From an uncultured Bdellovibrionales bacterium (GTDB lineage Bacteria > Patescibacteriota > Minisyncoccia > Moranbacterales > UBA1568): a stretch of 64,000 nucleotides of DNA. Positions 6,446-56,880 of this stretch are shown here, piece by piece. The DNA is taken from NCBI GenBank assembly GCA_964612055.1, contig CAZTBI010000002.1:80296-144295 (forward strand), written 5' to 3'. The notes beneath the pieces were generated by a model. It ran no database searches, was not told where the DNA came from, and saw nothing but the letters and a program-made list of their open reading frames with translations. The position numbers were made by a program, and so were the translations under genes. Numbering within the stretch: the stretch's first letter is position 1; each line of letters begins with the position of its first letter.

Positions 6446-6670
6446 TTAGAATGACGATTGAAGAGGCAGCATTTCTTCGAGTGGGAGTGAAAAAAAGAGA
6501 AGAGCATTCGTAAACAAAAGTATACCGAGAACGCTCATAAAAAGAAGAGTGCCAAACAGAGCTACCTTACGGTTGAGGGAGTAACGGAGTAAATGAAAAA
6601 CAACAAACAACCCAGTGATGACGAAACTCAAAAAAAGAAACGTATAGAGAAGACCAAAAACAAAACGCAT
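6446..6670 (-). CDS. Small hypothetical membrane protein
   Basis: 74 aa with two hydrophobic helices, tightly packed between ruvB and the PH-domain gene on the same strand. Confidence 0.4.
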   Translation of the reverse strand: MRFVFGLLYTFLFLSFVITGLFVVFHLLRYSLNRKVALFGTLLFMSVLGILLFTNALLFFSLPLEEMLPLQSSF

Positions 6671-6719
6671 AGGGAATATTTTTTGTTGACCTCGTTATTG
6701 TATCATCGCCCGATGATGC

Positions 6720-7751
6720 CTACAATAATTTTTCTTGATGATTTTTTGGCATCGCTATATCGAGATGCTTGTAACCATGTTCTGTGACGACGCGGCCACG
6801 CGGAGTGCGAGCCAGGAATCCGAGCTGGATCAAGTACGGTTCGTAGACGTCTTCGATGGTCTGTATCTCTTCGCCAGTAACGGCCGCGAGTGCCTGGATA
6901 CCGGCGGGACCACCTTTGAACTTATGGATGAGGGTGTGAAGAATGTGACGGTCAGTTGGTTCGAGACCGAGATGGTCAATTTCGTACAGATCGAGCGCTT
7001 CACGGGCAAGGTCCCCGGAAATGGTAGGGACATCTTTTACTTCCGCATAATCGCGGACGCGTTTCAAAATGCGATTCGCCACGCGGGGAGTTTGGCGGCT
7101 ACTTCTGGCAATCTCTTCTGCTCCTGATACATCGAGACCAATACCAAGAATACCCGAGGAGCGCTTTACGATCTTTTCGATATCTTCCGGAGTGTAGAAT
7201 TCTAGTCTGTGAGTCGAGCCAAAGCGATTGCGCAGGGGATTGGAAAGCGATCCCAGTCTGGTAGTGGCACCAATCAGGGTGAAGCGGGGGAGATCAAGCT
7301 GGATGGTTCGGGCGGCTGGTCCTTTGCCGATGATGATATCGAGTTTGTAGTCTTCCATGGCTGGATACAAGACTTCTTCGATCATTTTATTGAGTCGGTG
7401 AATTTCATCAATAAAGAGGACGTCACCGGGTTCGAGATTAGTGAGGATAGAGCCGAGGTCACCTACTTTTTCGATGGCCGGTCCCGAAGTCACCTTGATA
7501 CCGACACCCATTTCTTTGGCGATGATGTGAGCAAGAGTTGTTTTTCCGAGTCCTGCTGGACCATAGAGAAGCACGTGATCAATATTTTCAGAGCGTTTCT
7601 TGGCGGCTTGAATAAAGATATCGAGATGGCGCTTGATCTTGTCCTGGCCAATATATTCTCCGAAATTTTGTGGCCGAAGGGTGTTATCCAGGTTCTGATC
7701 TTCAGCAGCCTTTTCTGGCTCTAGAGGGGAAGAAGTTTCAGCGTGAATCAT
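6720..7751 (-). CDS. ruvB: Holliday junction branch migration ATPase RuvB
   Basis: Walker [12 protein letters not shown], sensor motifs and a RuvB C-terminal domain. Confidence 0.95.
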
Positions 7752-7812
7752 AGGAATAAATGCTTGAATAAGGGAAAAAGTGACGTTTACTACAGTTTCA
7801 GTATAGCACTAG

Positions 7813-7841
7813 TTGACAAAGATTCAAAGACATGCTATTAT
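7813..7841 (+). promoter_or_regulatory. sigma70-type promoter for the candidate sRNA (TTGACA-N17-TATTAT)
   Basis: -35 TTGACA at 7813-7818, 17-nt spacer, -10 TATTAT at 7836-7841. Confidence 0.55.
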
Positions 7842-7846
7842 CAGGG

Positions 7847-8080
7847 GTCGCTTAAAAAACAAGTCCGCCTATTTCGATAGGACTGCTTCACATGTAGACA
7901 ATTGGGGATTTCTATCTTTTATCCTCAATCACGGGAACTGTTGCCAAGATCCGGGTAGGGTGGTTTCGGCTGCGCTATACCTCGACACTTTTCCTTTCCT
8001 CGTGCTCCCATGCTTGAGGATTTGTCTACAGCTGAAGCAGTAGCGATAGAAAAACCCCTCCATCTCGGAGAGGTTTTTTG
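7847..8080 (+). ncRNA. Candidate structured small RNA (rod-like, 6S-like or novel); no protein-coding potential
   Basis: Delimited by the consensus promoter and an intrinsic terminator. 5' GGGGTCGCT (7844-7852) pairs with AGCGA...CCCC (8042-8058). 18-bp helix 7882-7901/8022-8041 with a 2x2 internal loop, coaxial with 8-bp helix 7921-7928/8014-8021. UUCG-tetraloop hairpin at 7868-7881. Confidence 0.45.
8055..8080. terminator. Bidirectional intrinsic terminator
   Basis: Hairpin CCTCC-ATCTC-GGAGAGG followed by T7 on the + strand and preceded by A5. Serves the + sRNA and the minus-strand pilB-like gene ending at 8098. Confidence 0.55.
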
Positions 8081-8097
8081 TTTGGAGATTCCTATTA

Positions 8098-9867
8098 CTA
8101 TTTTCCGCGACCGCCGCTTTTCTCAAGAGTTTCTTGGATACCAACATCGGAAAGGATGTCATCGTAGAGGCTTTGGAGGGATTCTTCTTTGCCGGCGCTG
8201 TTCCAAACCTCATCCATGGTGGTGATACCGTCGATGACTTTCAGTATCCCATCCTGGCTCATCGTGAGCATGCCATCTTCTATCGCTGCTTTGCGAATTT
8301 CGTTTTCGAGCGCTCCATCAGAAATAAGTCCAGCCATTTTTTCATTGACGGGAAAGACTTCAAAAATACCTTTACGGCCTCGGTAACCGTTTAAGTTACA
8401 CTCACTGCACCCCACAGGTTTGTAGAGGGTGGGGATATCATCCGGAACCTTGACTCCTGCCTTTGGCGAAATGAAAGAGAGAATTTTTTTGATAGCATCA
8501 ACGGTTTTTTGGGCCGGAGCATAGGCCACTTTGCACTTGGGGCAGAGGATGCGTACCAAGCGCTGGGCGATAAAGATAGTCACGCCCGTAGCAATGGATG
8601 ATGGTTTCGATCCGAGTTCCAGGAGACGAGCGATCGATGCGGCGGCGCTATTGGTGTGAAGAGTGGAGAAAACTAAGTGACCGGTGAGCGCTGCGTTAAT
8701 CGCGATATCAGCTGTTTCCTCATCACGAATTTCTCCCACCAAGATAACGTCAGGATCCTGACGGACGATAGCGCGCAGTCCTTGCGCGAAGGTGTAGTTT
8801 TTGTCTTTGGAGACTTCTGTCTGAACGATACCGGGAAGCACGTATTCTATCGGATCTTCGATGGTAATAATCTTGAGTGATTTATCATTCACGCTATTCA
8901 AAAGGCTGTAGAGAGTGGTCGTTTTTCCGGAACCCGTTGGTCCGGTATTTAGGATCATGCCAAAAGGCTTTTCGATTTGTCGTTTCACTTCATCGTACGC
9001 CCGACCGCGAAGCCCGAGTTCTTCGACTGGCACAAAGGCTTCTTCGCCAGTGAGGAGCCGCATGTTGATGCTTTCGCCGTTATTGCCAGGAATGATGTTG
9101 ACGCGGATATCGATGTGGTGCTCTCCGAGTTCTGCAGAAAAATGACCATCTTGAGAACGATTGCGAATATTGATTTTCATTTTCGCCATCATCTTCACTC
9201 GGGAAAGCGCTAACTGATAGACGGACTTAGGAAGGTTCCCGACTTCTTGTAAGACGCCATCAATACGGTAGCGCAGACGAACATTTTCTCCGAAAGGCTC
9301 GAAGTGGATATCGCTTGAGCGGAGTTTGTAAGCACCGGCGAGAATGATTTCCAAAATGCGGGAAGTAGGAATGCTGGAAGAATCTTTGTTCAGCTGTAAG
9401 AGGTCTCCGAAATCTTGTTCAAATTTTTCGAGGTCAGGGCCAGAAAGAGAAACGTGCATGAAGTCGAGACTTTCGATCAAAGGTTTCTTTTCGTACTCCA
9501 TCCAAACTTTTTCGAGTGATGGTTGTGAAACAAGAAAGAAGTCAGCTTCTAGGTCATGGCTCTTGGCAAAGGTATCGAAGAACTCCAGGGCCTCAGCATT
9601 CTTTGGATCAGTGATGGCGACACGGAGCTTTGGACGTTCTTTCTGAAAGATGACCGCTCCCAGGCGTTTCGAATCCTCCTCCGAGAGCATGAGCACTGCT
9701 TCTTGGTCAAGAGGGAAGATAGAAAGATCGAGGTAGCGCATGCCAAGCTCGCTTGCAGTACGAGCGGTAGTTTCTTCTATAGACTGCGAACGCATTTTAT
9801 CGAGAACGCCCTGAGTTTTTTCGTCAGAAACGGTATGCGTCGGTTCTTGATGAACAACCTTGACCAT
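8098..9867 (-). CDS. pilB: GspE/PilB-family type II/IV secretion ATPase (copy 1)
   Basis: 589 aa. N-terminal T2SSE_N-like region, Walker A GPTGSGKTTT, and a tetra-Cys motif CPKC...CSEC. Confidence 0.9.
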   Translation of the reverse strand: MVKVVHQEPTHTVSDEKTQGVLDKMRSQSIEETTARTASELGMRYLDLSIFPLDQEAVLMLSEEDSKRLGAVIFQKERPKLRVAITDPKNAEALEFFDTFAKSHDLEADFFLVSQPSLEKVWMEYEKKPLIESLDFMHVSLSGPDLEKFEQDFGDLLQLNKDSSSIPTSRILEIILAGAYKLRSSDIHFEPFGENVRLRYRIDGVLQEVGNLPKSVYQLALSRVKMMAKMKINIRNRSQDGHFSAELGEHHIDIRVNIIPGNNGESINMRLLTGEEAFVPVEELGLRGRAYDEVKRQIEKPFGMILNTGPTGSGKTTTLYSLLNSVNDKSLKIITIEDPIEYVLPGIVQTEVSKDKNYTFAQGLRAIVRQDPDVILVGEIRDEETADIAINAALTGHLVFSTLHTNSAAASIARLLELGSKPSSIATGVTIFIAQRLVRILCPKCKVAYAPAQKTVDAIKKILSFISPKAGVKVPDDIPTLYKPVGCSECNLNGYRGRKGIFEVFPVNEKMAGLISDGALENEIRKAAIEDGMLTMSQDGILKVIDGITTMDEVWNSAGKEESLQSLYDDILSDVGIQETLEKSGGRGK

Positions 9868-9924
9868 ACGAAGAGAGTAAATAGCTTAACTCTTTCTATT
9901 GTAGCGCAATTCTCGATGCGTAAG

Positions 9925-9958
9925 CAAAAAAACTGCCCAGCATCTGTGGGCAGTTTCT
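9925..9958 (-). terminator. Intrinsic terminator after the DHH gene
   Basis: On the minus strand, CTGCCCACAGATGCTGGGCAG hairpin followed by TTTTTTT. Confidence 0.55.
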
Positions 9959-9977
9959 TGGAAATCGTTTCGAAAAT

Positions 9978-11123
9978 CTACTTTGTTATCAAAAGATCTT
10001 GCAATCTGGCAATCGCCAACTGCTCAGCTTCCTCGAGGGTGTTGGCAGGAAGAGTGAATTCGAGTGTATCACCATGGAGAGCTCCTTCTTTGAAACGCTC
10101 GGCGAGGAGTGACAAGCTTTCTCCGTTTGCTGCCTTGATCAAGCCTTTTATCTGGAGGTGGCTTTCTGGGTAGAGAATCATGAAGAAGTTACCCGAAGAG
10201 TAGTTGCTGCGAATCTTTTCCAATACTCGTGGTAGATCAGGAGTGGCTGCTCTTGATTGAACCAGGTCTTCGACAGTGACGAGGGCCCAGATAAGCTTGA
10301 GACTTTCGTTCCATTTGACGCCGGCCATGACACGCCCCCAAAGTTTGAGAAGATGGAGCGGTTGGGTCTTGTAGAGCGAACGGATGATCTTTTGTTGATC
10401 GGCGCCTTTATCCATGAGCCGTGAAGCGATCTGGAGCGCTTTTGGTGTGGTATTTTTTTTCTGAAAACTCTCTGTGGCACTGATGATGCCGGCAAGCAGG
10501 CTCTCGCTCTCCTTCTCTCCCAAGCTCCCGAGAGTATTTTTTTCAAGAATCTCTGCCAAGATTTCGGCAGTGGAGGAGGCGGTGATATCAACCAAGTTTA
10601 TCTGACCAAAGAGTTCGTTGTCGGAATGGTTGTCGATATTGATGATAGGAAGCTCGTAGAAAATATCAGGATTTTCTTCATATACTTTCCCGAGGTGCTC
10701 CTTGTCTGGAGAGCCGATGACGATAGCGAGATCGAATTTGAATTTTGCCGGAATGAAAGAAAAGTCTCGTGGATCGATAGCGCCGTTTTCTGGAGTGAGG
10801 TAAATACGGAGTTCATCAGCGCCGGTCTCGGTCCGGACATTCATGATCTTGTTGCGTGTGGTACTAAACGACAAGACGAAATCTCGAGCCCCAGTAATCG
10901 ATGGCAGGAGATTTTCAGGTTCACCGATAAAGGCGAGCGTTTCTTTGTCTCCCGTAATATTTTCTCCTGCAACGAAGGCTTCTTTCCCGACATTTTTCAG
11001 GAAAAAAGCGAGTGCAAAAGCAGAGGCGACAGCATCGCGGCTCGGGAACTGAGGAAGAATAATCAATGGGGCAGTGGTCTTTTTGAGGAGTTCTTCAAAT
11101 TGCTGGGAGGGGGTGAGGGACAT
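9978..11123 (-). CDS. DHH-family phosphoesterase (NrnA-like oligoribonuclease/pAp phosphatase)
   Basis: DHH motif (NIDNHSDN) and DHHA1-like C-terminus. Start chosen at MSLTPSQ; the ORF track's 11225 start would leave only 14 bp before divergent tsaE. Confidence 0.75.
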   Translation of the reverse strand: MSLTPSQQFEELLKKTTAPLIILPQFPSRDAVASAFALAFFLKNVGKEAFVAGENITGDKETLAFIGEPENLLPSITGARDFVLSFSTTRNKIMNVRTETGADELRIYLTPENGAIDPRDFSFIPAKFKFDLAIVIGSPDKEHLGKVYEENPDIFYELPIINIDNHSDNELFGQINLVDITASSTAEILAEILEKNTLGSLGEKESESLLAGIISATESFQKKNTTPKALQIASRLMDKGADQQKIIRSLYKTQPLHLLKLWGRVMAGVKWNESLKLIWALVTVEDLVQSRAATPDLPRVLEKIRSNYSSGNFFMILYPESHLQIKGLIKAANGESLSLLAERFKEGALHGDTLEFTLPANTLEEAEQLAIARLQDLLITK

Positions 11124-11239
11124 ACTGCCTTCGTTGGTTGAAATTGATAAGTAGTCAAAGGTACCAAAGACTGGGCGTCGTGTCAACTTGAGGGCGCTTT
11201 CTGGCCAAAAGGCCTGATTTGGCATAGGATGAAATCATT

Positions 11240-27933: not shown

Positions 27934-28018
27934 GGAAAGGTGGCCGAGTGGCTGAAGGTACTCGCTTGGAAAGCGAGCAACTCGCAAGGGTTCGCGGGTT
28001 CGAATCCCGCCCTTTCCG
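27934..28018 (+). tRNA. tRNA-Ser (anticodon GGA)
   Basis: Acceptor GGAAAGG/CCTTTCC, D-arm GCCGAGTGG, anticodon loop TTGGAAA, long variable arm, T-loop GGTTCGAATCC. No encoded CCA. Confidence 0.85.
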
Positions 28019-28065
28019 CTTTGAGTAGGAAATATAAAGTGTTCGAATCCCTCCTCTTCCGCCAA

Positions 28066-44371: not shown

Positions 44372-44393
44372 TAAAAATTGAATAATCTTTTTG

Positions 44394-44422
44394 ACAGAGG
44401 GCTTTTTTTGTGCTATTATGGA
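44394..44422 (+). promoter_or_regulatory. Consensus promoter (TTGACA-N17-TATTAT) for 44496 gene
   Basis: -35 at 44394-44399 and -10 at 44417-44422. Confidence 0.5.
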
Positions 44423-44495: not shown

Positions 44496-45539
44496 ATGGT
44501 ACGAACTGAAATTCAAAGAACAGTCATGCTGGGAATCTTCTCTCTCTTGGTTGTCCTCGCGCTTCCGATATTTTTCATCAACAAGGCCCAGGCAGCAGGC
44601 TTGACTCAGGCCATGGTGCGTCCTGATCGCCTGGCTGCTTCTACCACGACTGGTGGTATGGTATGTGCTAAATCTACGACCACCGCTGTTGAGACAACAG
44701 TCAAAGTGACGTTTCCCACAGGCTTTACCGTAAACAGCACTGCCTCCAACTGGACAGTCACGACGACAGATATCCCTGCCGATGCTACTGCCTGGATTGG
44801 TATCGGGACCGCCTCCCTGGTCTCTGGTCAGGATGTCACGTTTCCGAGTGGTAACATGGTTGTAGGGACACTGTATTGCTTCAACTTTGCTGCCTCAAGT
44901 ACTCTTACGACGAGTACTGCCGGGAATGACAAGACAGGAGTTATTACAACGCAGCTGGCTGGTCCGACGACTATCGATAGTTCGAGTTACGCGCTCTCTA
45001 TTGTTTCGAATGATCAGATTGTTGTGTCGGCTACTGTCCCAGCCACCTTTACTTTCAGCTTGAGTGCCAACACGGACTCCATCGGTACGTTGTCAACAAC
45101 CACCGCCTCTTCTTCTGGTGTGACTGCTACTATCGCGACCAATGCCGCTGCTGGTTGGGTGGCGTGGGCAAAGAGCGCGAACGCTGCTTTGAACTCGGCT
45201 TCAACTGGAGCGACTATTGCGACAGCAGGTACTCTCAATAATGCTCCAACAGATCTCGCCTCCTCTACTGGCTATGTCCTGGATGTGAACGTTACGACAG
45301 ACAGTGGTACCGGTACCGGTACAGTCTCTCAGGCTTCAGATTATGGCGCAGAATACAATGGCACCAACTCGACTTCAGGAGGAACGCTTTCAACTACCTT
45401 TCAGCCGATTGCCGCTTCGAGTGGTACAACCGATGGTGATGTGCTGACTCTCATTGAGCGAGCAAAGATCAGCGCTGTCCAGGCTGCCGCTACCGATTAT
45501 ACCGATACTCTGACAGTTGTTGCTGCCGGTCGTTTCTAA
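44496..45539 (+). CDS. Secreted Thr/Ser/Ala-rich surface protein, WxL-like C-terminus (paralog 2)
   Basis: Signal peptide (cleavage after AQA). Ends ...ATDYTDTLTVVAAGRF; proximal ATFTFSL motif. Confidence 0.6.
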   Translation: MVRTEIQRTVMLGIFSLLVVLALPIFFINKAQAAGLTQAMVRPDRLAASTTTGGMVCAKSTTTAVETTVKVTFPTGFTVNSTASNWTVTTTDIPADATAWIGIGTASLVSGQDVTFPSGNMVVGTLYCFNFAASSTLTTSTAGNDKTGVITTQLAGPTTIDSSSYALSIVSNDQIVVSATVPATFTFSLSANTDSIGTLSTTTASSSGVTATIATNAAAGWVAWAKSANAALNSASTGATIATAGTLNNAPTDLASSTGYVLDVNVTTDSGTGTGTVSQASDYGAEYNGTNSTSGGTLSTTFQPIAASSGTTDGDVLTLIERAKISAVQAAATDYTDTLTVVAAGRF

Positions 45540-45647
45540 AAGGGATTTAAACCGAAAAGATAGGCCTCCTTCCTTATGAAGGAGGTTTTTGTTTTCCCTC
45601 CCAGTAGCCATTTTTTAGAGGAATGCGCTATAATAGAAACATCTTTT

Positions 45648-46730
45648 ATGAAAATCTCCCATTCTTCCTTATTGAATAAGACGGCTTTGCTCGGCCTGTT
45701 TTTTGTCTTCTCTTTCCTCTTGCCACTTCAAGCACGAGCTCAGACGAACCAAGATTCGATCGAAGCGGGTCTCCGCCTTGTGACCTCTCCATTGCCTATC
45801 AGCTTGGTGACCGAGCCAGGGACCTCGATCTCAACTGATCTCAAGATAAAGAATGGTGGTGCAGCAGAAGAGCGTCTCCAGGTGACACTCATGAAATTTC
45901 GGGCCTATGAAGAGTCTGGAAAACCACAGCTTTTAGAGCGAGAAGCTGGAGACGACTTTCTTGATTGGGTTCATTTTTCAGAATCAACCTTTACGCTCGC
46001 TCCGAACGAATGGAAAACAATTACCGCTACCTTTGAGGTGCCACCTACCGCCTCCTTTGGTTACTACTATGCTTTTGTGTTCTCTCGATCCGGGGAAGGG
46101 ACAATGCTCCAGGAAAGAGAAACGGCCATTGTTGGCGGTACGGCCGTTCTCGTGCTCCTCGAGGCTCGTGTTCCCAATGCTCTGAGACAGGTAGAAGTTG
46201 CTGAGTTTTCTCTCGACAAAAAGTTCTACGAGTTTCTTCCAGCGACCTTCTCCGTACTGTTGAAAAACTCTGGTAATGTCCATGTGGCACCTCGGGGCAA
46301 CATCTTCATTGATCAGGGAACAACACATGACGTTGCTATTCTCGAGATTAACCACGAGAAGGGGAGTATTCTTCCTCAATCAAACCGTGCCTTTGAGACA
46401 ACTTGGGAAGATGGTTTTCCGCTCTATGTCGACAAGCTTGAAGATGGAAAAACGGTGCGTGATGAAGAAGGAAATATCATGCAAACTCTCAAGTGGGACT
46501 GGAACAATGCCTCCAAGCTTCGTTTTGGTAAGTACACCGCCAAGATGCTCTTGATCTACGATGACGGACAGCGTGATATCCCGATCGAAGGAGAAGTGTC
46601 TTTCTGGGTGGTGCCTTGGAGGATTATTGGACTGGCTCTCTTCAATATACTGCTCATCGTAGGGTTGATCCTCTACGTGATTCGTCTGCGTCGTAAGTTA
46701 AAGCGTTTGAACTATGAAGAAAAGAAATAA
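45648..46730 (+). CDS. Membrane-anchored cell-surface protein, DUF916/DUF3324-like architecture (copy 1)
   Basis: Start chosen at MKISHSS. Signal peptide ...LPLQARA, a beta-rich ectodomain of about 300 aa, C-terminal TM helix plus basic tail (RLRRKLKR). Confidence 0.65.
   Translation: MKISHSSLLNKTALLGLFFVFSFLLPLQARAQTNQDSIEAGLRLVTSPLPISLVTEPGTSISTDLKIKNGGAAEERLQVTLMKFRAYEESGKPQLLEREAGDDFLDWVHFSESTFTLAPNEWKTITATFEVPPTASFGYYYAFVFSRSGEGTMLQERETAIVGGTAVLVLLEARVPNALRQVEVAEFSLDKKFYEFLPATFSVLLKNSGNVHVAPRGNIFIDQGTTHDVAILEINHEKGSILPQSNRAFETTWEDGFPLYVDKLEDGKTVRDEEGNIMQTLKWDWNNASKLRFGKYTAKMLLIYDDGQRDIPIEGEVSFWVVPWRIIGLALFNILLIVGLILYVIRLRRKLKRLNYEEKK
45704..46628 (+). repeat. Tandem direct repeat copy 1 (925 bp, 100% identical to copy 2)
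   Basis: Identical to 46776-47700 at a 1072-bp period. The ORF track shows identical sub-ORF translations in all frames. Confidence 0.9.
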
Positions 46731-49458: not shown

Positions 49459-52400
49459 TTGAGTCGGGGTGAGCCGACGCAGATGTTTTTTTGTATGCCA
49501 TTCTCACCGAGAAATCTCAAAACAAAAAAAATATACAACGGCTACAAGAATTTTTTCTTGCTGCCCCTCTTTTTTACAGGTATTGCTCTTGTAGCGTTTT
49601 TTTCGTCTCCTGATGTTTTCGCCGCTACTGGTATCAACGAGGAAATTAGTTTCCAAGGGAAGGTAGTCAATGATGATGGTACCAATGTTGCCAATGGTAA
49701 CTACGATTTTGTTTTCAAGCTCTACACCGTCTCTTCAGCTGGGACAGCAGTCTGGACCGAAACTCGAACGGGTGGCAATCAGGTGACGGTGACTGACGGT
49801 ATTTTTCAGGTCAATCTTGGTTCGGTGACGACTTTGCCAGGATCAGTTGATTTCAATACCGATAACATCTATCTCGGTATCGAGTTTAATAGCGATGGTG
49901 AAATGTCACCCCGGGTTCATTTTACGGCTGCCCCCTATGCCATGAATGCGGCCAAGGTAGGAGGGCTGACGGTGACTGATACTACGGGTACGCTGACGAT
50001 TCCGAATGGCAAGACGATTTCTTTTGCTGATGATTTTACAACGTCTGGAGCTTTTGCAACGACACTGACTGCGACGGCGACAACTAACGTCACGCTCCCA
50101 ACGACAGGGACACTAGCGACATTGGCAGGGAGCGAAATATTCACGAACAAAACTATTGGTTCTACCGGGCTGGTCTTTTCTGGCGCGACGACGGATATTA
50201 CCACTGCCTCAAACGAAGATCTGACTCTTACGGCAGCTGGTTCAGGAGATATCGTGTTGGTACTTGATTCAGGTACTTTTGTGAATCTGACTGGTGGCGC
50301 TGATGGAACAGCGGCGTTGACACTGGCGGCTGGTGATCTGACGCTCACTGACGGTGATCTCATTGTGACGGCTGGGGATGTGAATTTCACTTTGGATGTT
50401 GCCGATACATTTAATATCGTTAAGTCTGGGGCCAACGCTGGTGATGTCGCCAACATCACTGCCTCGTCGGTCAATGCTCTTGATGGCTTGCAGATTGATC
50501 TCACAGCGACGACTGATTCTGGAGCAGACAATGTCACGGGTCTTGATCTTGCCTGGACAGAATCTGCGGATGCTGATGTCTGGACCGCTCTCAATCTGCC
50601 GAATACCACAACAACGAATTCCTCCACGAGGGCTTTTGTTATAGGGACGGGATATGACACTATTCTTGATACCGCTGCCCTCGATATTTCTGGAGCAGGA
50701 GTGATTTCTGGGGCGACGGGAATTTCGACGACTACTCTTACGGCATCATCCACTATCGCTGCCAATGGCGGTATTACCTTCGATGCTTCCACAGATACGT
50801 TGGGTGCTTTTACAATGGCTGGCACACTCGATGCCAATGCTAATATCCTGACCAATATTGGAAACTCGGGTACGGATTTCGTAGCCTCGACGGGCGCACT
50901 GACCTTGGCTGGAGTCTTGACGGCCAATGGTGGTATTAGTTTGTCGGCCAGTCAGTCTCTCACAGCAGTAGCTCTTTCATACATTGACCTTGGATCTATC
51001 ACTCATGGTACGACTGCGGTGCAGGGTCTGCGTCTCCCTCAAGCGGCTTCGGCTAGTCCGTCGAGCCCGAGTTCGGGCGAGGGCTATCTCGCTTGGGATG
51101 CGAGCGGCAATCAACTCATTTACTATACGGGAAGTGCTTGGTCCACGATTTCAGGTGGCAGTGGCTACAATCTGATCAAGGATGAAGCAAGCAGCCTAAC
51201 CGCTCGAACGACGTTAGCTTTTCTTGGATCAGGAGTGTCCTGTGCCGACAATGCTTCACAGACAGAGTGTACTATTTCTGGCGGTGGTTCGAGTGATTTA
51301 CAAACCACGTATGGCAATGATGCTGATGGATCTGATGCGACGATTTCTCTTACGACGGCTGATGATTCACTTATTTTTACAAACCCAACCTCCTCTGGTA
51401 CCGACAGCGCCTTCCTCCTCCAAATTTCTCAGCAGCACACGACTGCTGGCGTCGTAGCGCTCGATATCACACAGTCATCCAGTGGAGCAAATGGTCTCAA
51501 TCTTACTGCGAATGCTATCGATACCGAGACGGCTCTAGCAGTGACAGCGAATACGCTCACTTCTGGCTTCGGTCTCAGTATCGCTTCCTCATCAGCGGCT
51601 CTTACGGGAGCATTGCAATCGATCACACTTTCCGGTTCCAATGCCAGTAACACGGGTTCGCTCCTCGCCCTTGATAACACGGGCACCTCCAATGCCAATA
51701 CTTCGCTCTACATCAAGCACTATGCGACTGGTACCAACAATCTGGCCTTCCGCATCGATGACGTCTCTGGTGATACCACGCCGTTTGTGGTTGATGGTAC
51801 CGGGGCAGTAGGTATCGGAACGACAGCACCAACGAGTTTGTTCGAACTCTATGGTACTGGAGCGGCTGACATTGTCGGTACCCTGACCGCCCCTGACGCG
51901 ACGTACGATCCCATTTTCAAATTCCGCACCGGTTCGACTCCGGCCGTTATGTTCTCGATGGGTGTTGATAACTCTGATTCAAGTAAATTCAAGATCTATT
52001 CTGGTGATGGCCTAGGAAGTGGTGATGAATTCGTCATTGATGCCGGTGGCGTGACGACTATTGCCAACCTCAATCTTGGAGCTACCAGTTTTGACGAAGA
52101 CGCCGGTATTGTTTCTTGGATGGATATGTCGGTGACTGCATCATCAGCAGTAGACAGTATCCAGAGTTATTCGGCGCTCATTGATGGCAATAGTCTTCTC
52201 ACGGTTTACGCTGAATCTGATGGCGCTGACGGTATTCAGGATAAGCGTATTCAGATTGGTGAGGGCGGAGCTGGCTCGACGGGCCCAACGCTTTTGGCTC
52301 TCGATGTGAAATCAGATACGAGCGATCCAGCGGGTTTCGAGGGTGCCATGTACTACAACACGTTCGATAATGTTTTCCGCTGTTACCAGAATAGTGGCTG

Positions 52401-55400
52401 GACGAACTGTATTGGGTCGGGTGGTTCATCGGATCTTCAGGCAACGTACGGTAATGATGCCGACGGTTCCAACGTCACTATTTCCCTGACCTCGGCGGAT
52501 GACGGCATCGTTTTCAGTAACCCAGCTTCTTCTGGTACTGACAGCGCCTTTACCTTCAAAGTAGAACAGCTGAATACCGGTATCGATAACGACGCTTTGT
52601 ATATCGACAATCGTGGAACAGGGGATGGGCTGCGGATTGATGATGAATCTGGCGATACCACGCCGTTTATTGTCGACAAAGATGGTCGGGTGGGTATCGG
52701 GACGAGTTCCATTAGCGCTGCCGCTGCGACGGAACGTCTCCTTCAGGTTGGGTCAGAAACAAACCGAGGAAATAGTGTGACATACGGTGAAGTGGTAACA
52801 AAAGGTCAGCGCGACATCACGGCGCTTACCAATATTAAGGATATCTATGTGTACGACACCACGGCTGATAGTGATGGTGGTCGCTGGATTGACTGGGCGA
52901 CGACCGATAAATTGTCGTGGTATACGGAGACGCTTGATGATGGCCCGAATGACCCGTGCAATATTGCCTCTGATGATCGCTGTTACAAGGCCTCGTTCCC
53001 GCGCAAGGCTATTTTGGTCGTAACGACCGATGCTCTCTATATTTTCGATGCCCAGGACAACACCTTGTGGATGAAGTTTAGTCAGAACGCCTCTGGATAT
53101 GCGCTTGGTATTGATACTAACAATGATCCTTCGTCAGTGAGCGCTTTGAACGGGGTGATCTATGTGGGAACCAATGGAGTCTCAGCTGGAGGGCTTTATG
53201 CATTTGATTTTACGACAGATCGGATGTGGAAATATGACTCTACCGATCGTAGTCAAGGTGATGTTGGTATAGGAAGTCGCAACAGCGCTGTAACATATAA
53301 TTCTGATAATAATACCCAGTTTGATCTTGGTAATGATACCGGTTGGGATGCTGTGAATGATGTATCAGTTGCTACGATGCAGTTTAGTACCACGGCCATT
53401 GCTATCGGTACTACCACGAACATTGGTCCGGGCAATGGTTCAACGCTCGTGGCTGTGGCTACTGATTCAGGACTGGGAGTTATTAATCTTTCTAGACAAC
53501 GTTATGTCGCTTATTCGGATGCTACGGATGATAACTACAATGCCGTCGTAATTACACGGACCGCTAAACTGTATGGCTTGAATAATACCCTAGACCAAGC
53601 AGAAAAGTGGATTAATATTGATCAGGATCAGGTGAGCGAAGAAAATGGAACGCCTGATAAGGTGTGGGATCAAGCTTCTACGCCTGCGCTTTCTAAAACT
53701 CAGCCTGCAATCAGTAGTGGGGCACCAGATGCGCTCGAGGTAGTGGAGCGTGGCTCGCTTGCGGACGGTGGTTTGCTTTCGACAGCTGCCGCTGCTGGTT
53801 CTTCAGACCTTATCTATGTTGGTACTGACCAGGGTTTGACAGAAATCCATGATCATTCGACCCCAGCTTCTGGTTGGTCAAAATTTTTCAATACTACTAA
53901 GCAGTCAGCGCTCATGCCGGGAACTATCAAGCGTGCCCATATGATGGATGATGCTTCTGGAGATTTGACAGATGATAGTTTCCGAGTAAATACCATGGCG
54001 CCCATTGGGGGCGTAACCTATGGAATCAATGGTGCGCGAGGAAAAGCAGTGACGCTCAATGGTACGAGCGGATTCTTCTGTTCAGATAATGGTGGAGCAA
54101 CTTGTGCTGTAGATACTGATGACAATATGAGCACAACCGCTTGGAATATGCAGATGTGGTTTAAGCATTCTGTAACTCAGGCAGGGACTGATGTTTTGTA
54201 TAGCCGCTGCTACAATACAACCCCGGCTGCTGCCGCTGCCTGTGTAACAGTCTATATGACGAGCACTGGTACTATGGTTGCTGCTTATGATGATGATGCT
54301 ACTTGGACAGCTTACTCCTCGTACGATGCTATGCTCACCTCGACACGGACGTATAATGACAATCAATGGCATCATATGGTTATGGCTCGTGATAACGCCA
54401 ATGACCTCCATTTCTTTATTGATGGCACGCCGATTGTTTCAAATAATGCGACTGGATCGACGCTGACACTTGATGCTAGTCAAATCGTATCGATCGGAGC
54501 GGATTGTAGCGTAGGAGTGGCCTGTGCGACAGGGGCCAATTTCTGGGATGGTTCCATAGATGACTTTACCTTTAGTCAGGGTACGACAACAGTAGATGCG
54601 TTGACGGGAGCGCAGGCACGCCGTCTCTATAATGATGCTCGGCCTCTTTTGAACAAAAAAGTAATCACGGTTACTGATGCTACTACCGCTACCTCTACCA
54701 CGATAGGTGATTCAGGAGAAACATGGATTCCGAATGAATTTTCGAGTCAGATTGTAGAAATTACGAGCGATACCGGAGCGGGTCAGACACGTCGCATCGT
54801 TGCTAATACGACAACAACATTAACTGTTTCCCCAGCCTTTTCGACAGTACCAGACACGACTTCAGATTTCGAAATCAATCCGGAAATTTTGTACGGCGCT
54901 TCGAATACTGTGACAGCCATCGGTGTCACGGGAGAGTCAGCCATGGGCGAAGCGCGTCAGTTGTGTGTAGGTACGAATAGCACGACTGACACGGGTGGTG
55001 TCACGTGTCTTAACCATCAAGCTGGGCCGAACCTGGTAGCTGACATGTATCACGGAGACTCGGAACAGACCGATGATAGTGGTGCGGAATGGACGGGCAC
55101 GGACTATGATGATATCCAATCTATTGATATCTCCGGTCGTGCGATGGTAATTGGCTCCATGGCGCACCTCTGGACAGAAACGGAAGATGTTCGTCTAGGA
55201 CAAGGAATGGATTATCTTTCCAATAAGATATTTGATTTGACTAACGTGGTAAAGAACCTTGGTATGCAGACCCTTGCTGGAAGTGGTAGCATGGAAATTG
55301 GTTTAACCGGTGGCGCTGACTTGGCTGAGCATTATTATTCGAACGAAGTTCTTACTGCGGGAGAGGTGGTAGCGATCGACAAGAGTCTTGTCGCGGGGAT

Positions 55401-56880
55401 CAAAAAAACGACCGGTGCCTATCAAAAAGATGTGCTTGGTATTGTCGCTACCGAACCAGGGATTATTCTTGGTGGAGCAGCTGAGAACTCCTATCCCGTT
55501 ACCCTGGTCGGACGTGTCCCAGTCAAAGTGACCAATGAGAACGGTCCAATCTATGCCGGTGATCGGCTGACATCAAGCGTGCGTCCGGGCTCTGCCATGC
55601 TTGCTACACAGGCTGGTCGAGTGCTTGGTGCGGCTCTGGCTGATGCTGTCGACTGGACAGTCTGTGAAGGGGAAAACCCACAGGATACCAATGCCTTGCT
55701 CTGTACGACTGTTATGGTGTTCATCAATCTGACGGATTATTCTGGTCAGTCGGTGGAACTGGCTATGGCAGAGCGTAATGCTGAATCCGATGGGCTTTCT
55801 GATATGGCAGCGCTCGATAGTATCGAACAAGGGCTCGGATCCGATAGCGCGAGCATCCGTCTCTCAAGAAACATGCCGACCAAGCAGGAAAAAATCCTCG
55901 ATTTCTTGAAGGATCTCGACGCCAAGCAAGTGGCCTCTGGTCAATCACTCTCAGAAGTCTTTACGGGACGAGTGGCCGCTTCTCGTGAGGTGATCACCCC
56001 GACTCTCTATGCCGATCAGATTTTTGCCAAGAGTATCAAGGCTGACTCTATCGAAGGGCTGGAGATCTTCACGAATCAGATCAGTAGTTTGGAAGAAAAA
56101 TATGCTGGTCTCGATGCGAAAGAAAGTGATTCATCAGAAACAACCGATACTGTGAAAGAACAGTTGGCTCTTGCCATGAAGAAACTTTCGGCTGATACAC
56201 TCATACTCAGGCTCGATGGCAGTATCTTGGGTAAACTTTCTGTGAATGGCGCGCTCAAGGTTGGTGAGACAGCAGAGTTTGGTGGAGAGACAGTCTTTGT
56301 GAAGCTTGCCAGTTTCTTGGACAAGACGATTTTCAAGGGAATGGTTTCATTTGAAAGTACACCAACCTTTGCCAGTGATACGGCTGGTTTCGCGGTGATT
56401 GCCAAGGATGCCCGGAGAGTACGCGTGGTATTTGATACACCGTACGAGAAGCAGCCGATCGTAACGGTCTCACTTACCCGCGAAGAGTCGCCACTGCTTT
56501 CTGAAGCCGATGAAGATTTGAAAAAGGATATTGCACTTTTGGAAGAAGAGTATGTAGGAGCTGTCTTCAAAGAAAATGTCCGTTATGTGGTGACGGAAAA
56601 ATCAGCCAACGGATTTACCGTCGTTCTTTCCGAAAAAGCAGCTCGTGACCTCCAGTTCTCTTGGGTAGCGCTCTCAGTGGATAAGGCTAAATCATTTAGT
56701 TCAGAACCGGAAGGGGAGGAAGAGGTGCTGCCACCGGCTGATCCGACAGAAGAGATTCTTCCGGCTGAAGAGGAAGTCGAGGGGACAGAGGAGATCCCGC
56801 CTCTTGAAGAGGAAAAGACCGAAACTTTGCCTTTGCCTGATGTTCCAGAAGCGCCGGCAAAGATCGAAGACTTACCATAG
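49459..56880 (+). CDS. Giant (2473 aa) secreted/surface protein with Thr/Gly/Ser-rich beta-repeat regions, LamG-like (Laminin_G_3) domain and acidic Glu/Pro-rich C-terminal tail
   Basis: N-terminal signal/TM (LLPLFFTGIALVAFF). Repeated module ...GGSSDLQ(T/A)TYGNDADGS... appears twice. LamG_3-like segment (WNMQMWFKH...NQWHHMVMARD...LHFFIDG...FWDGSIDDFTFS). Tail EEEVLPPADPTEEILPAEEEVEG. Confidence 0.75.
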   Translation: MSRGEPTQMFFCMPFSPRNLKTKKIYNGYKNFFLLPLFFTGIALVAFFSSPDVFAATGINEEISFQGKVVNDDGTNVANGNYDFVFKLYTVSSAGTAVWTETRTGGNQVTVTDGIFQVNLGSVTTLPGSVDFNTDNIYLGIEFNSDGEMSPRVHFTAAPYAMNAAKVGGLTVTDTTGTLTIPNGKTISFADDFTTSGAFATTLTATATTNVTLPTTGTLATLAGSEIFTNKTIGSTGLVFSGATTDITTASNEDLTLTAAGSGDIVLVLDSGTFVNLTGGADGTAALTLAAGDLTLTDGDLIVTAGDVNFTLDVADTFNIVKSGANAGDVANITASSVNALDGLQIDLTATTDSGADNVTGLDLAWTESADADVWTALNLPNTTTTNSSTRAFVIGTGYDTILDTAALDISGAGVISGATGISTTTLTASSTIAANGGITFDASTDTLGAFTMAGTLDANANILTNIGNSGTDFVASTGALTLAGVLTANGGISLSASQSLTAVALSYIDLGSITHGTTAVQGLRLPQAASASPSSPSSGEGYLAWDASGNQLIYYTGSAWSTISGGSGYNLIKDEASSLTARTTLAFLGSGVSCADNASQTECTISGGGSSDLQTTYGNDADGSDATISLTTADDSLIFTNPTSSGTDSAFLLQISQQHTTAGVVALDITQSSSGANGLNLTANAIDTETALAVTANTLTSGFGLSIASSSAALTGALQSITLSGSNASNTGSLLALDNTGTSNANTSLYIKHYATGTNNLAFRIDDVSGDTTPFVVDGTGAVGIGTTAPTSLFELYGTGAADIVGTLTAPDATYDPIFKFRTGSTPAVMFSMGVDNSDSSKFKIYSGDGLGSGDEFVIDAGGVTTIANLNLGATSFDEDAGIVSWMDMSVTASSAVDSIQSYSALIDGNSLLTVYAESDGADGIQDKRIQIGEGGAGSTGPTLLALDVKSDTSDPAGFEGAMYYNTFDNVFRCYQNSGWTNCIGSGGSSDLQATYGNDADGSNVTISLTSADDGIVFSNPASSGTDSAFTFKVEQLNTGIDNDALYIDNRGTGDGLRIDDESGDTTPFIVDKDGRVGIGTSSISAAAATERLLQVGSETNRGNSVTYGEVVTKGQRDITALTNIKDIYVYDTTADSDGGRWIDWATTDKLSWYTETLDDGPNDPCNIASDDRCYKASFPRKAILVVTTDALYIFDAQDNTLWMKFSQNASGYALGIDTNNDPSSVSALNGVIYVGTNGVSAGGLYAFDFTTDRMWKYDSTDRSQGDVGIGSRNSAVTYNSDNNTQFDLGNDTGWDAVNDVSVATMQFSTTAIAIGTTTNIGPGNGSTLVAVATDSGLGVINLSRQRYVAYSDATDDNYNAVVITRTAKLYGLNNTLDQAEKWINIDQDQVSEENGTPDKVWDQASTPALSKTQPAISSGAPDALEVVERGSLADGGLLSTAAAAGSSDLIYVGTDQGLTEIHDHSTPASGWSKFFNTTKQSALMPGTIKRAHMMDDASGDLTDDSFRVNTMAPIGGVTYGINGARGKAVTLNGTSGFFCSDNGGATCAVDTDDNMSTTAWNMQMWFKHSVTQAGTDVLYSRCYNTTPAAAAACVTVYMTSTGTMVAAYDDDATWTAYSSYDAMLTSTRTYNDNQWHHMVMARDNANDLHFFIDGTPIVSNNATGSTLTLDASQIVSIGADCSVGVACATGANFWDGSIDDFTFSQGTTTVDALTGAQARRLYNDARPLLNKKVITVTDATTATSTTIGDSGETWIPNEFSSQIVEITSDTGAGQTRRIVANTTTTLTVSPAFSTVPDTTSDFEINPEILYGASNTVTAIGVTGESAMGEARQLCVGTNSTTDTGGVTCLNHQAGPNLVADMYHGDSEQTDDSGAEWTGTDYDDIQSIDISGRAMVIGSMAHLWTETEDVRLGQGMDYLSNKIFDLTNVVKNLGMQTLAGSGSMEIGLTGGADLAEHYYSNEVLTAGEVVAIDKSLVAGIKKTTGAYQKDVLGIVATEPGIILGGAAENSYPVTLVGRVPVKVTNENGPIYAGDRLTSSVRPGSAMLATQAGRVLGAALADAVDWTVCEGENPQDTNALLCTTVMVFINLTDYSGQSVELAMAERNAESDGLSDMAALDSIEQGLGSDSASIRLSRNMPTKQEKILDFLKDLDAKQVASGQSLSEVFTGRVAASREVITPTLYADQIFAKSIKADSIEGLEIFTNQISSLEEKYAGLDAKESDSSETTDTVKEQLALAMKKLSADTLILRLDGSILGKLSVNGALKVGETAEFGGETVFVKLASFLDKTIFKGMVSFESTPTFASDTAGFAVIAKDARRVRVVFDTPYEKQPIVTVSLTREESPLLSEADEDLKKDIALLEEEYVGAVFKENVRYVVTEKSANGFTVVLSEKAARDLQFSWVALSVDKAKSFSSEPEGEEEVLPPADPTEEILPAEEEVEGTEEIPPLEEEKTETLPLPDVPEAPAKIEDLP

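Follow-up and report, generated by a model that had tools for sequence, protein, structure and literature searches.

The question raised by this locus is what is encoded in a gap of 346 bp between ruvB (6720-7751, minus strand) and a pilB-like gene (8098-9867, minus strand). The gap lies in a stretch of 64,000 nucleotides (nt) of contig CAZTBI010000002.1, here called the window, and coordinates refer to this window unless a locus is named. The host belongs to Candidatus Moranbacteria (Parcubacteria group, Candidate Phyla Radiation (CPR)/Patescibacteria); its RuvB shares 84-92% identity with that of metagenome-assembled genomes (MAGs) labelled Moranbacteria or Moraniibacteriota. An earlier note, made from the sequence alone, had seen in the gap a highly structured transcript with its own promoter and terminator, and had offered two explanations, a rod with a bubble like that of 6S RNA or a new family of small RNA (sRNA). 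The reading favoured here, with a probability of about 0.5, is that positions 7847-8083 (plus strand) encode a member of a new family of stand-alone structured non-coding RNA, which acts in trans, is abundant, and binds a protein or a ligand. The family is found in Moranbacteria and in some related Parcubacteria.

Structure and strand of the RNA

Folding of the 239-nt stretch yields -84.5 kcal/mol (z = -4.5 relative to dinucleotide shuffles), and in this respect the transcript is as highly structured as had been described. The opposite strand gives z = -5.1. Both strands fold equally well, and folding energy alone therefore cannot choose the strand. RNAalifold, applied to 30 sequences, gave 43 pairs with compensatory changes in 28 of them; helix P4 was added to this model by eye and then tested. 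The pairing test was performed on a model-based alignment of 97 sequences (90 distinct). Among the 90 distinct sequences, 95.0% of the cells assigned to pairs are paired, versus 78.9% in shuffles (none of 500 attained 95.0%) and 44-48% in slid controls. Double changes occur in 40 of the 49 pairs and are present in every one of the six helices; the covariation check across homologues proposed in the earlier note thus supports all of them. Mutual information was ranked without reference to the structure and with average product correction. Among the top 30 column pairs 23 are modelled base pairs, and one more is an extra pair of P6 (8002/8015). The model consists of the following parts:

7883-7890 / 8033-8040, plus strand: helix P1, variable in sequence
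7893-7901 / 8022-8030, plus strand: helix P2, UGUAGACAA, conserved
7902-7909 / 7921-7928, plus strand: hairpin P3, with an 11-nt loop UUCUAUCUUUU holding the near-invariant CUAUCUUUU
7933-7938 / 7990-7995, plus strand: helix P4, double changes in 5 of 6 pairs
7939-7952 and 7982-7989, plus strand: P4/P5 internal loop, conserved and asymmetric, CAAGAU opposite UCGACAC
7953-7964 / 7969-7981, plus strand: helix P5, capped by UUCG (7965-7968), double changes in 6 of 11 pairs
7998-8005 / 8012-8019, plus strand: hairpin P6, loop UCCCAU, double changes in all 7 modelled pairs

P1 and P2 together show double changes in 15 of 17 pairs and are among the top mutual-information pairs. The 18-bp helix reported before (7882-7901/8022-8041) is this P1+P2 stem of 18-20 bp; the inverted repeat was found, and it covaries. 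P3 is paired in 99.7% of its cells, with double changes in 7 of 8 pairs. Helices P2, P3, P4 and P6 converge on a four-way junction, joined by linkers of 0-5 nt. Three single-stranded parts are nearly invariant, namely the loop of P3 (CUAUCUUUU), the internal loop between P4 and P5, and the loop of P6; a P6 loop of the CCCA type is retained in distant homologues, and the invariant GG/CC base pairs of P5 adjoin the CAAGAU/UCGACAC loop. Insertions are confined to one site, between the 5' strand of P4 and CAAGAU; they measure 17-125 nt, and some at least are hairpins (loci L017 3397-3660, L023 3479-3732, L026 3638-3892 and L031 3501-3793; also L010, L013, L015, L016 and L018-L020). This site is probably a tolerated, solvent-exposed position. 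No convincing pseudoknot or tertiary pair was found by mutual information, the weak candidate 7943/7986 being the only one. Pairing between the P3 loop and CAAGAU shows no covariation because the loop is invariant. The P4/P5 internal loop was checked by eye for a K-turn, a loop E and a T-loop, with no convincing fit.

Parts of the rod described earlier did not withstand the comparison. For the 8-bp helix 7921-7928/8014-8021, the strands are complementary in the present genome but show no covariation; these bases belong to P3 and P6. What had been taken for a single-stranded bulge of 19 nt (7902-7920) consists of the P3 loop and the 5' strand of that hairpin. Pairing of the 5' and 3' ends is seen for 7847-7852/8042-8047 in the fold of the window only and is absent in the nearest relatives.

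With the covariance model, the plus strand scores 169 bits and the minus strand 21.6 bits. Several conserved G-U pairs exist on the plus strand only and would be A-C if read on the opposite strand; one of them, 7905/7925 in P3, is kept in 85 of 87 sequences and therefore fixes the strand as plus. In the alignment of homologues the -35 box, the TG and the -10 box are conserved on the plus strand of the window. A minus-strand RNA had been suggested by the repeat 7921-7936/8006-8021 (A-C on plus, G-U on minus) and by the slightly better minus-strand fold. It was rejected: the repeat lacks covariation, and the conserved G-U pairs, the promoter and the bit scores all favour the plus strand.

The absence of a credible open reading frame (ORF), as noted earlier, was confirmed. 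A 76-aa ORF (7813-8043) begins within the -35 box, and no frame is open across the 97 homologues. Their core lengths are distributed over all residues modulo 3 (28/45/24), and each plus-strand frame anchored on the conserved loop is interrupted by stop codons in 60-88 of 92 homologues. A conserved small ORF, the sign of a protein gene, was looked for in the homologues and not found.

Transcription signals, family and gene neighbourhood

The signals around the conserved core are as follows:

7800-7808, minus strand: extended -10 element of the divergent ruvB promoter, TGCTATACT on the minus strand; promoter listed as TTGAAT-16-TATACT
7813-7841, plus strand: promoter of the RNA gene, -35 box TTGACA (7813-7818), 17-nt spacer, TG (7833-7834), -10 box TATTAT (7836-7841)
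7847-7882, plus strand: variable 5' leader, predicted start near G7847 in a conserved (A/G)GUC, hairpin with UUCG loop at 7868-7881
8050-8083, plus strand: intrinsic terminator, probably bidirectional, A-tract, hairpin CCCCUCC/GGAGAGG, U6GUUU

The promoter TTGACA-N17-TATTAT had been recognized before and scores 11/12, the top promoter-like site within 6500-10000; the TG extends it. Of 87 distinct homologues, 86 are preceded on the same strand by an exact TTGACA-N14-TG-N-TANNNT, among them the distant loci L046, L051, L071 and L074. By our own arithmetic, the chance expectation of this pattern in 200 nt is about 4e-5. The window contains two further exact matches, one at 44391-44419 (plus strand, TTGACAGAGGGCTTTTTTTGTGCTATTAT) about 75 nt 5' of the ORF 44496-45539, and one at 11158-11186 (minus strand) within a DHH-family gene.

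The transcript start near G7847 is predicted from the promoter spacing and the RGTC consensus 3' of the -10 box. The leader, from promoter to first helix, measures 11-139 nt across homologues (median 40). Its UUCG hairpin (7868-7881), already pointed out in the earlier note, has counterparts of differing sequence at the same place in near relatives.

At the 3' end the intrinsic terminator is present as had been described, with a hairpin at approximately 8050-8079 followed by U6-G-U3 (8074-8083). Because an A-tract flanks the hairpin, the terminator is predicted to be bidirectional and could also serve the convergent pilB (stop codon at 8098) on the minus strand. Terminator features were found in 71 of the 87 distinct homologues, as a hairpin of its own with T-run in 45 and as a T-run directly 3' of P1 in 26, where the closing stem therefore acts as terminator. 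This is so in L046, L051 and L074; in L046 and L074 the stem is a perfect 24-bp duplex with the U-run immediately after it. The distance from core to terminator ranges from 0 to about 80 nt. Another strong bidirectional terminator-like hairpin is located at 45545-45595 (GGCCTCCTTCCTTATGAAGGAGGTTTTTG) and holds the listed ATG of the ORF 45576-46730, the true start of which is probably further downstream.

Its own promoter, terminator features and the lack of a conserved frame would make the element an independent sRNA gene. A cis-acting riboswitch or leader does not fit: no gene follows on the same strand, and the next gene is always convergent.

The element was compared with Rfam 15, as the earlier note had advised for 6S RNA, RNase P, transfer-messenger RNA (tmRNA) and signal recognition particle (SRP) RNA, and no family matched in the window or in 21 homologues (E up to 10). 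At gathering thresholds the sole match in the window is a tRNA-Ser (27934-28018). Permissive scans gave only terminator look-alikes with E above 1 for 7700-8150, and nothing relevant for 20 homologous loci and one Staskawiczbacteria copy; below threshold, the element matches nothing but terminator look-alikes and hairpin models of miRNAs. ARAGORN found no tmRNA. The only tRNA of the window is this tRNA-Ser(GGA), at 27934-28019 on the plus strand. A literature search found nothing on an RNA beside ruvB, on 6S RNA in CPR bacteria, or on non-coding RNAs of Moranbacteria. Because neither Rfam 15 nor the literature search gave a match, the RNA is rated as a new family or class, with the novelty claimed at the level of the RNA family; its functional class could prove to be a known one. 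The earlier alternative of a new sRNA family thus stands, with a non-coding unit running from promoter to terminator on the plus strand.

Homologues were searched with nhmmer (query 7800-8097) in 80 genome loci anchored on RuvB. About 40 of the 80 have the element immediately 5' of ruvB, with E values down to 8e-62, and RuvB identity in the element-bearing loci falls to approximately 65-70%. A scan of metagenome contigs used a DNA pattern of the invariant RNA positions only and was independent of the neighbouring genes. It matched at least 120 metagenome loci, and all those listed carry the element. In about 100 loci the covariance model matches with E values between 1e-48 and 1e-20. Models R1 and R2 also recovered homologues that are weaker but still significant and occupy the same position, in two Staskawiczbacteria (L074 2760-2897; L071 3779-3912) and in Parcubacteria-like bins of two other lineages (L046 1131-1313; L051 2239-2395). 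These distant homologues have fold z-scores of about -11 and begin approximately 5-10 nt from the predicted transcription start, L071 excepted, where the promoter is about 63 nt 5' of the core. About 10 further CPR lineages (Kuenen-, Falkow-, Kerfeldbacteria and others) gave no match 5' of ruvB, even with filters off.

The RNA gene is single-copy. A mobile or multi-copy element was considered and rejected: there is no second copy within the window, and a collection of viral contigs gave no match to the RNA element.

Several MAGs placed in Moranbacteria by RuvB and the RNA (L001, L002, L004, L011, L013 and others) are titled "uncultured Bdellovibrionales bacterium", and L041, L046 and L061 are titled "Candidatus Saccharibacteria"; the bins under both titles are probably mislabelled.

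The pilB-like gene encodes a type II/IV secretion ATPase according to Pfam. Past ruvB, the minus strand carries a 74-aa membrane ORF, a bPH_2 protein, yebC and ruvC. The order nrnA-pilB-RNA-ruvB-orf74-bPH-yebC is kept as a block among related loci. Among the metagenome loci listed, the divergent neighbour is ruvB wherever the flank suffices; the exceptions are contigs that end near the RNA and the lineage of L081 and L093. There a GIY-YIG-like ORF lies between ruvB and the RNA gene. The inserted ORF has 101 aa (YVYVLLSKKDGQKYAGYTKNLKLRFEQHNKG..., L081 8255-8557, L093 4087-4389; GIY-YIG-like by eye) and puts about 800 bp between the two promoters, and the RNA is unaltered. The downstream gene is always convergent and is usually pilB or pilT; in L124, L165, L178 and L200 it is not a pil gene. 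In most relatives (L006, L008-L010, L012, L015-L017 and many metagenome loci), two T2SSE ATPase genes, pilB and a shorter paralogue resembling pilT, separate the DHH-family gene from the RNA, against a single one in the window (8098-9867) and its nearest relatives. Elsewhere in the window, a 2473-aa ORF is found at 49459-56880 (plus strand).

The extended -10 element of ruvB (TGCTATACT, from 7808 down to 7800) is 4 nt from the -35 box of the RNA, and a minus-strand TGnTAnnnT at exactly this spacing occurs in 52 of 85 distinct promoter regions. Because the geometry of the promoters requires that the polymerase footprints overlap, the two promoters are likely mutually exclusive. The 5' untranslated region (UTR) of ruvB is not conserved, the nhmmer alignments ending at about 7801. 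Antisense action on ruvB was ruled out, as the transcripts do not overlap. A mimic of the Holliday junction, considered for a four-way junction beside ruvB, was dropped, the Staskawiczbacteria copies being three-way.

Possible functions of the RNA

In the mechanism proposed here, the RNA would be made constitutively and abundantly. The long closing stem P1/P2 joins both ends and carries the four-way head (P3, P4-P5 and P6), and the base-paired ends would confer resistance to nucleases. In trans, the RNA may serve as a scaffold, with the conserved head bound by a protein partner or possibly by a small ligand, in a role akin to that of housekeeping RNAs of the SRP, Y or 6S type and not to that of a base-pairing antisense regulator. 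As a side effect, the strong promoter would probably also damp the transcription of ruvB. This reading is preferred because the closing stem, the head with its invariant loops, the insertion hot-spot and the invariant promoter resemble those of housekeeping ribonucleoprotein (RNP) or ligand-binding RNAs. Near-invariant loops and junctions, helices of variable sequence and insertions at a single site are typical of RNP, riboswitch or ribozyme RNAs and not of seed-type sRNAs.

Bacterial SRP (4.5S) RNA and Y RNAs also have a variable stem formed by the ends and a small conserved head, and are single-copy and likely constitutive. The RNA beside ruvB differs from them in having no motifs of SRP domain IV (GNAR loop, AGCA), no match to an SRP model and no rsr/Ro gene nearby. 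The raiA motif and OLE RNAs, orphan classes of structured bacterial RNA discovered through comparative genomics, are likewise defined by covariation, with conserved junction nucleotides, a narrow range and variable insertions at fixed sites; they differ in sequence, fold and lineage (here CPR/Parcubacteria), the promoter back-to-back with that of ruvB sets the present RNA apart, and no Rfam model of them matches.

Several points weigh against the favoured reading. The protein-binding scaffold is drawn from architecture alone, and the start and end of the transcript are predicted from sequence motifs. The head is not uniform across the family, as the Staskawiczbacteria copies lack P3 and have a three-way junction. 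The invariant 9-nt loop of P3 could equally be a base-pairing seed. The strict linkage to ruvB could signal a role in cis or at the level of the promoters, or could merely reflect a gene order conserved throughout the clade.

A more novel reading would make the RNA the RNA subunit of a new, Parcubacteria-specific housekeeping RNP, or a ribozyme, and in either case a new functional class and not a diverged 6S, SRP or Y RNA. It is considered rather unlikely. If it were true, the RNA may replace machinery missing from reduced genomes, or may couple mechanistically to the RuvABC recombination operon.

A divergent RNA of the 6S type (ssrS), which binds the sigma-A holoenzyme as a mimic of the open promoter and is released by synthesis of product RNA (pRNA), is an unlikely alternative. 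In this view P1/P2 would correspond to the downstream closing stem and P4-P5 to the apical stem, with P3 and P6 as hairpins in the two strands of the central bubble. The size fits (approximately 170-240 nt), the RNA stands alone, its ends are paired in a long closing stem, the apical arm has an internal loop, and the promoter is of the consensus housekeeping type. Sequence conservation of 6S RNA is limited, and divergent phyla needed models of their own. The 5' strand of the junction is open over 7-8 nt in the Staskawiczbacteria copies L071 and L074. Like P6, a hairpin of B. subtilis 6S-1 lies on the 3' side, in the 3' strand of the central bubble (PMC8876501). Against these likenesses, none of the 6S-type Rfam models (6S, 6S-Flavo and related) matches the window or the 21 homologues with E up to 10. 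The closing stem and the apical arm are present, but the centre is a tight junction with the covarying P3 and P6 and not an unstructured bubble. In all Moranbacteria copies, the window included, the would-be template strand forms the 8-bp covarying P3 hairpin on P2, so that only about 4 nt (7929-7932) are unpaired and no open 5' bubble strand is available for pRNA. In distant homologues the closing stem is a bulge-free duplex that doubles as terminator, and the strong invariance of the internal loop and the hairpin loops is atypical of 6S RNA. The rod with a bubble proposed earlier rested on the non-conserved helix 7921-7928/8014-8021 and is replaced by the covarying branched junction.

A trans-acting base-pairing sRNA is likewise improbable. 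Its seed for purine-rich sites on target mRNAs would lie in the pyrimidine-rich P3 loop (CUAUCUUUU), perhaps together with the UUCCUUUCC tract. An invariant 9-nt loop on top of a covarying stem, and a promoter and terminator of its own like those of classical sRNAs, agree with this. P3 is, however, missing in the Staskawiczbacteria homologues, and the multi-helix fold, the conserved junctions and the insertion hot-spot exceed what a seed sRNA needs. Sites in the window complementary to the loop (up to 2 mismatches) number 46 versus 32 expected; they are not enriched, and the sole exact site is the gene itself. In 1.46 Mb of related loci about 25-30 non-self 9-mer matches were found, a number compatible with background, with no site recurring at gene starts. 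An apparent target site of the P3 loop at 45555 was discarded, as it lies within a terminator hairpin. The genes of the window have no Shine-Dalgarno (SD) motifs and so offer no target for a C/U-rich loop acting on SD sequences. In a survey of 26 gene starts of the window (e.g., 11700, 14802, 19742, 31096, and 7751 and 9867 on the minus strand), none had a GGAGG or AGGAG motif in the 30 nt 5' of the start, and most of the surveyed genes have a T immediately before the ATG. These sequence features suggest SD-independent initiation in the host organism.

A function mainly in cis is slightly harder still to accept. The very strong promoter of the RNA would compete with the overlapping, weaker ruvB promoter, or regulated read-through of the terminator, in the manner of a riboswitch, would yield antisense RNA to pilB/pilT, with the RNA as sensor or by-product. 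The fixed 4-nt spacing between the ruvB -10 and the RNA -35 elements implies overlapping polymerase footprints, linkage to ruvB is seen in practically all loci with sufficient flank, the downstream gene is always convergent, and a terminator follows an aptamer-like conserved core. The last three features, namely aptamer-like core, intrinsic terminator and convergent gene, are shared with riboswitch-controlled antisense transcripts, such as those regulated by a B12 riboswitch. Competition between promoters does not, however, require a conserved fold of 165 nt, the fixed ruvB -10 element is missing in 33 of 85 regions, and the GIY-YIG gene of L081/L093 splits the RNA from ruvB and leaves the RNA unaltered. 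The downstream gene is inconstant, the convergent gene of the four loci named above not being pil, and no aptamer model matches. No conserved antiterminator pairing was noticed, although not systematically examined, and the terminator distance varies from 0 to about 80 nt.

That there is no RNA gene at all, and that the region is a small protein gene, a minus-strand element (pilB 3' UTR or ruvB 5' UTR) or a chance inverted repeat, is hardly credible: both strands fold well (z = -4.5 and -5.1) and a 76-aa ORF crosses the region, but that ORF begins in the -35 box, no frame is conserved, length differences between homologues are not multiples of 3, the model, the G-U pairs and the promoter all favour the plus strand, and the covariation excludes chance.

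Meaning for the Parcubacteria

CPR/Patescibacteria represent a large share of bacterial diversity, and we know of almost nothing on their non-coding RNAs. New bacterial RNA motifs turn up regularly. The RNA beside ruvB is unusually well supported among such motifs; it is conserved throughout a CPR lineage at the level of a phylum, with genomes of about 1 Mb, and it carries signals of the housekeeping type. The gene is unlikely to be dispensable. Its sequence, structure and covariance model provide an entry point to what may be a missing housekeeping function, for example a 6S analogue in CPR bacteria, or to a new RNP.

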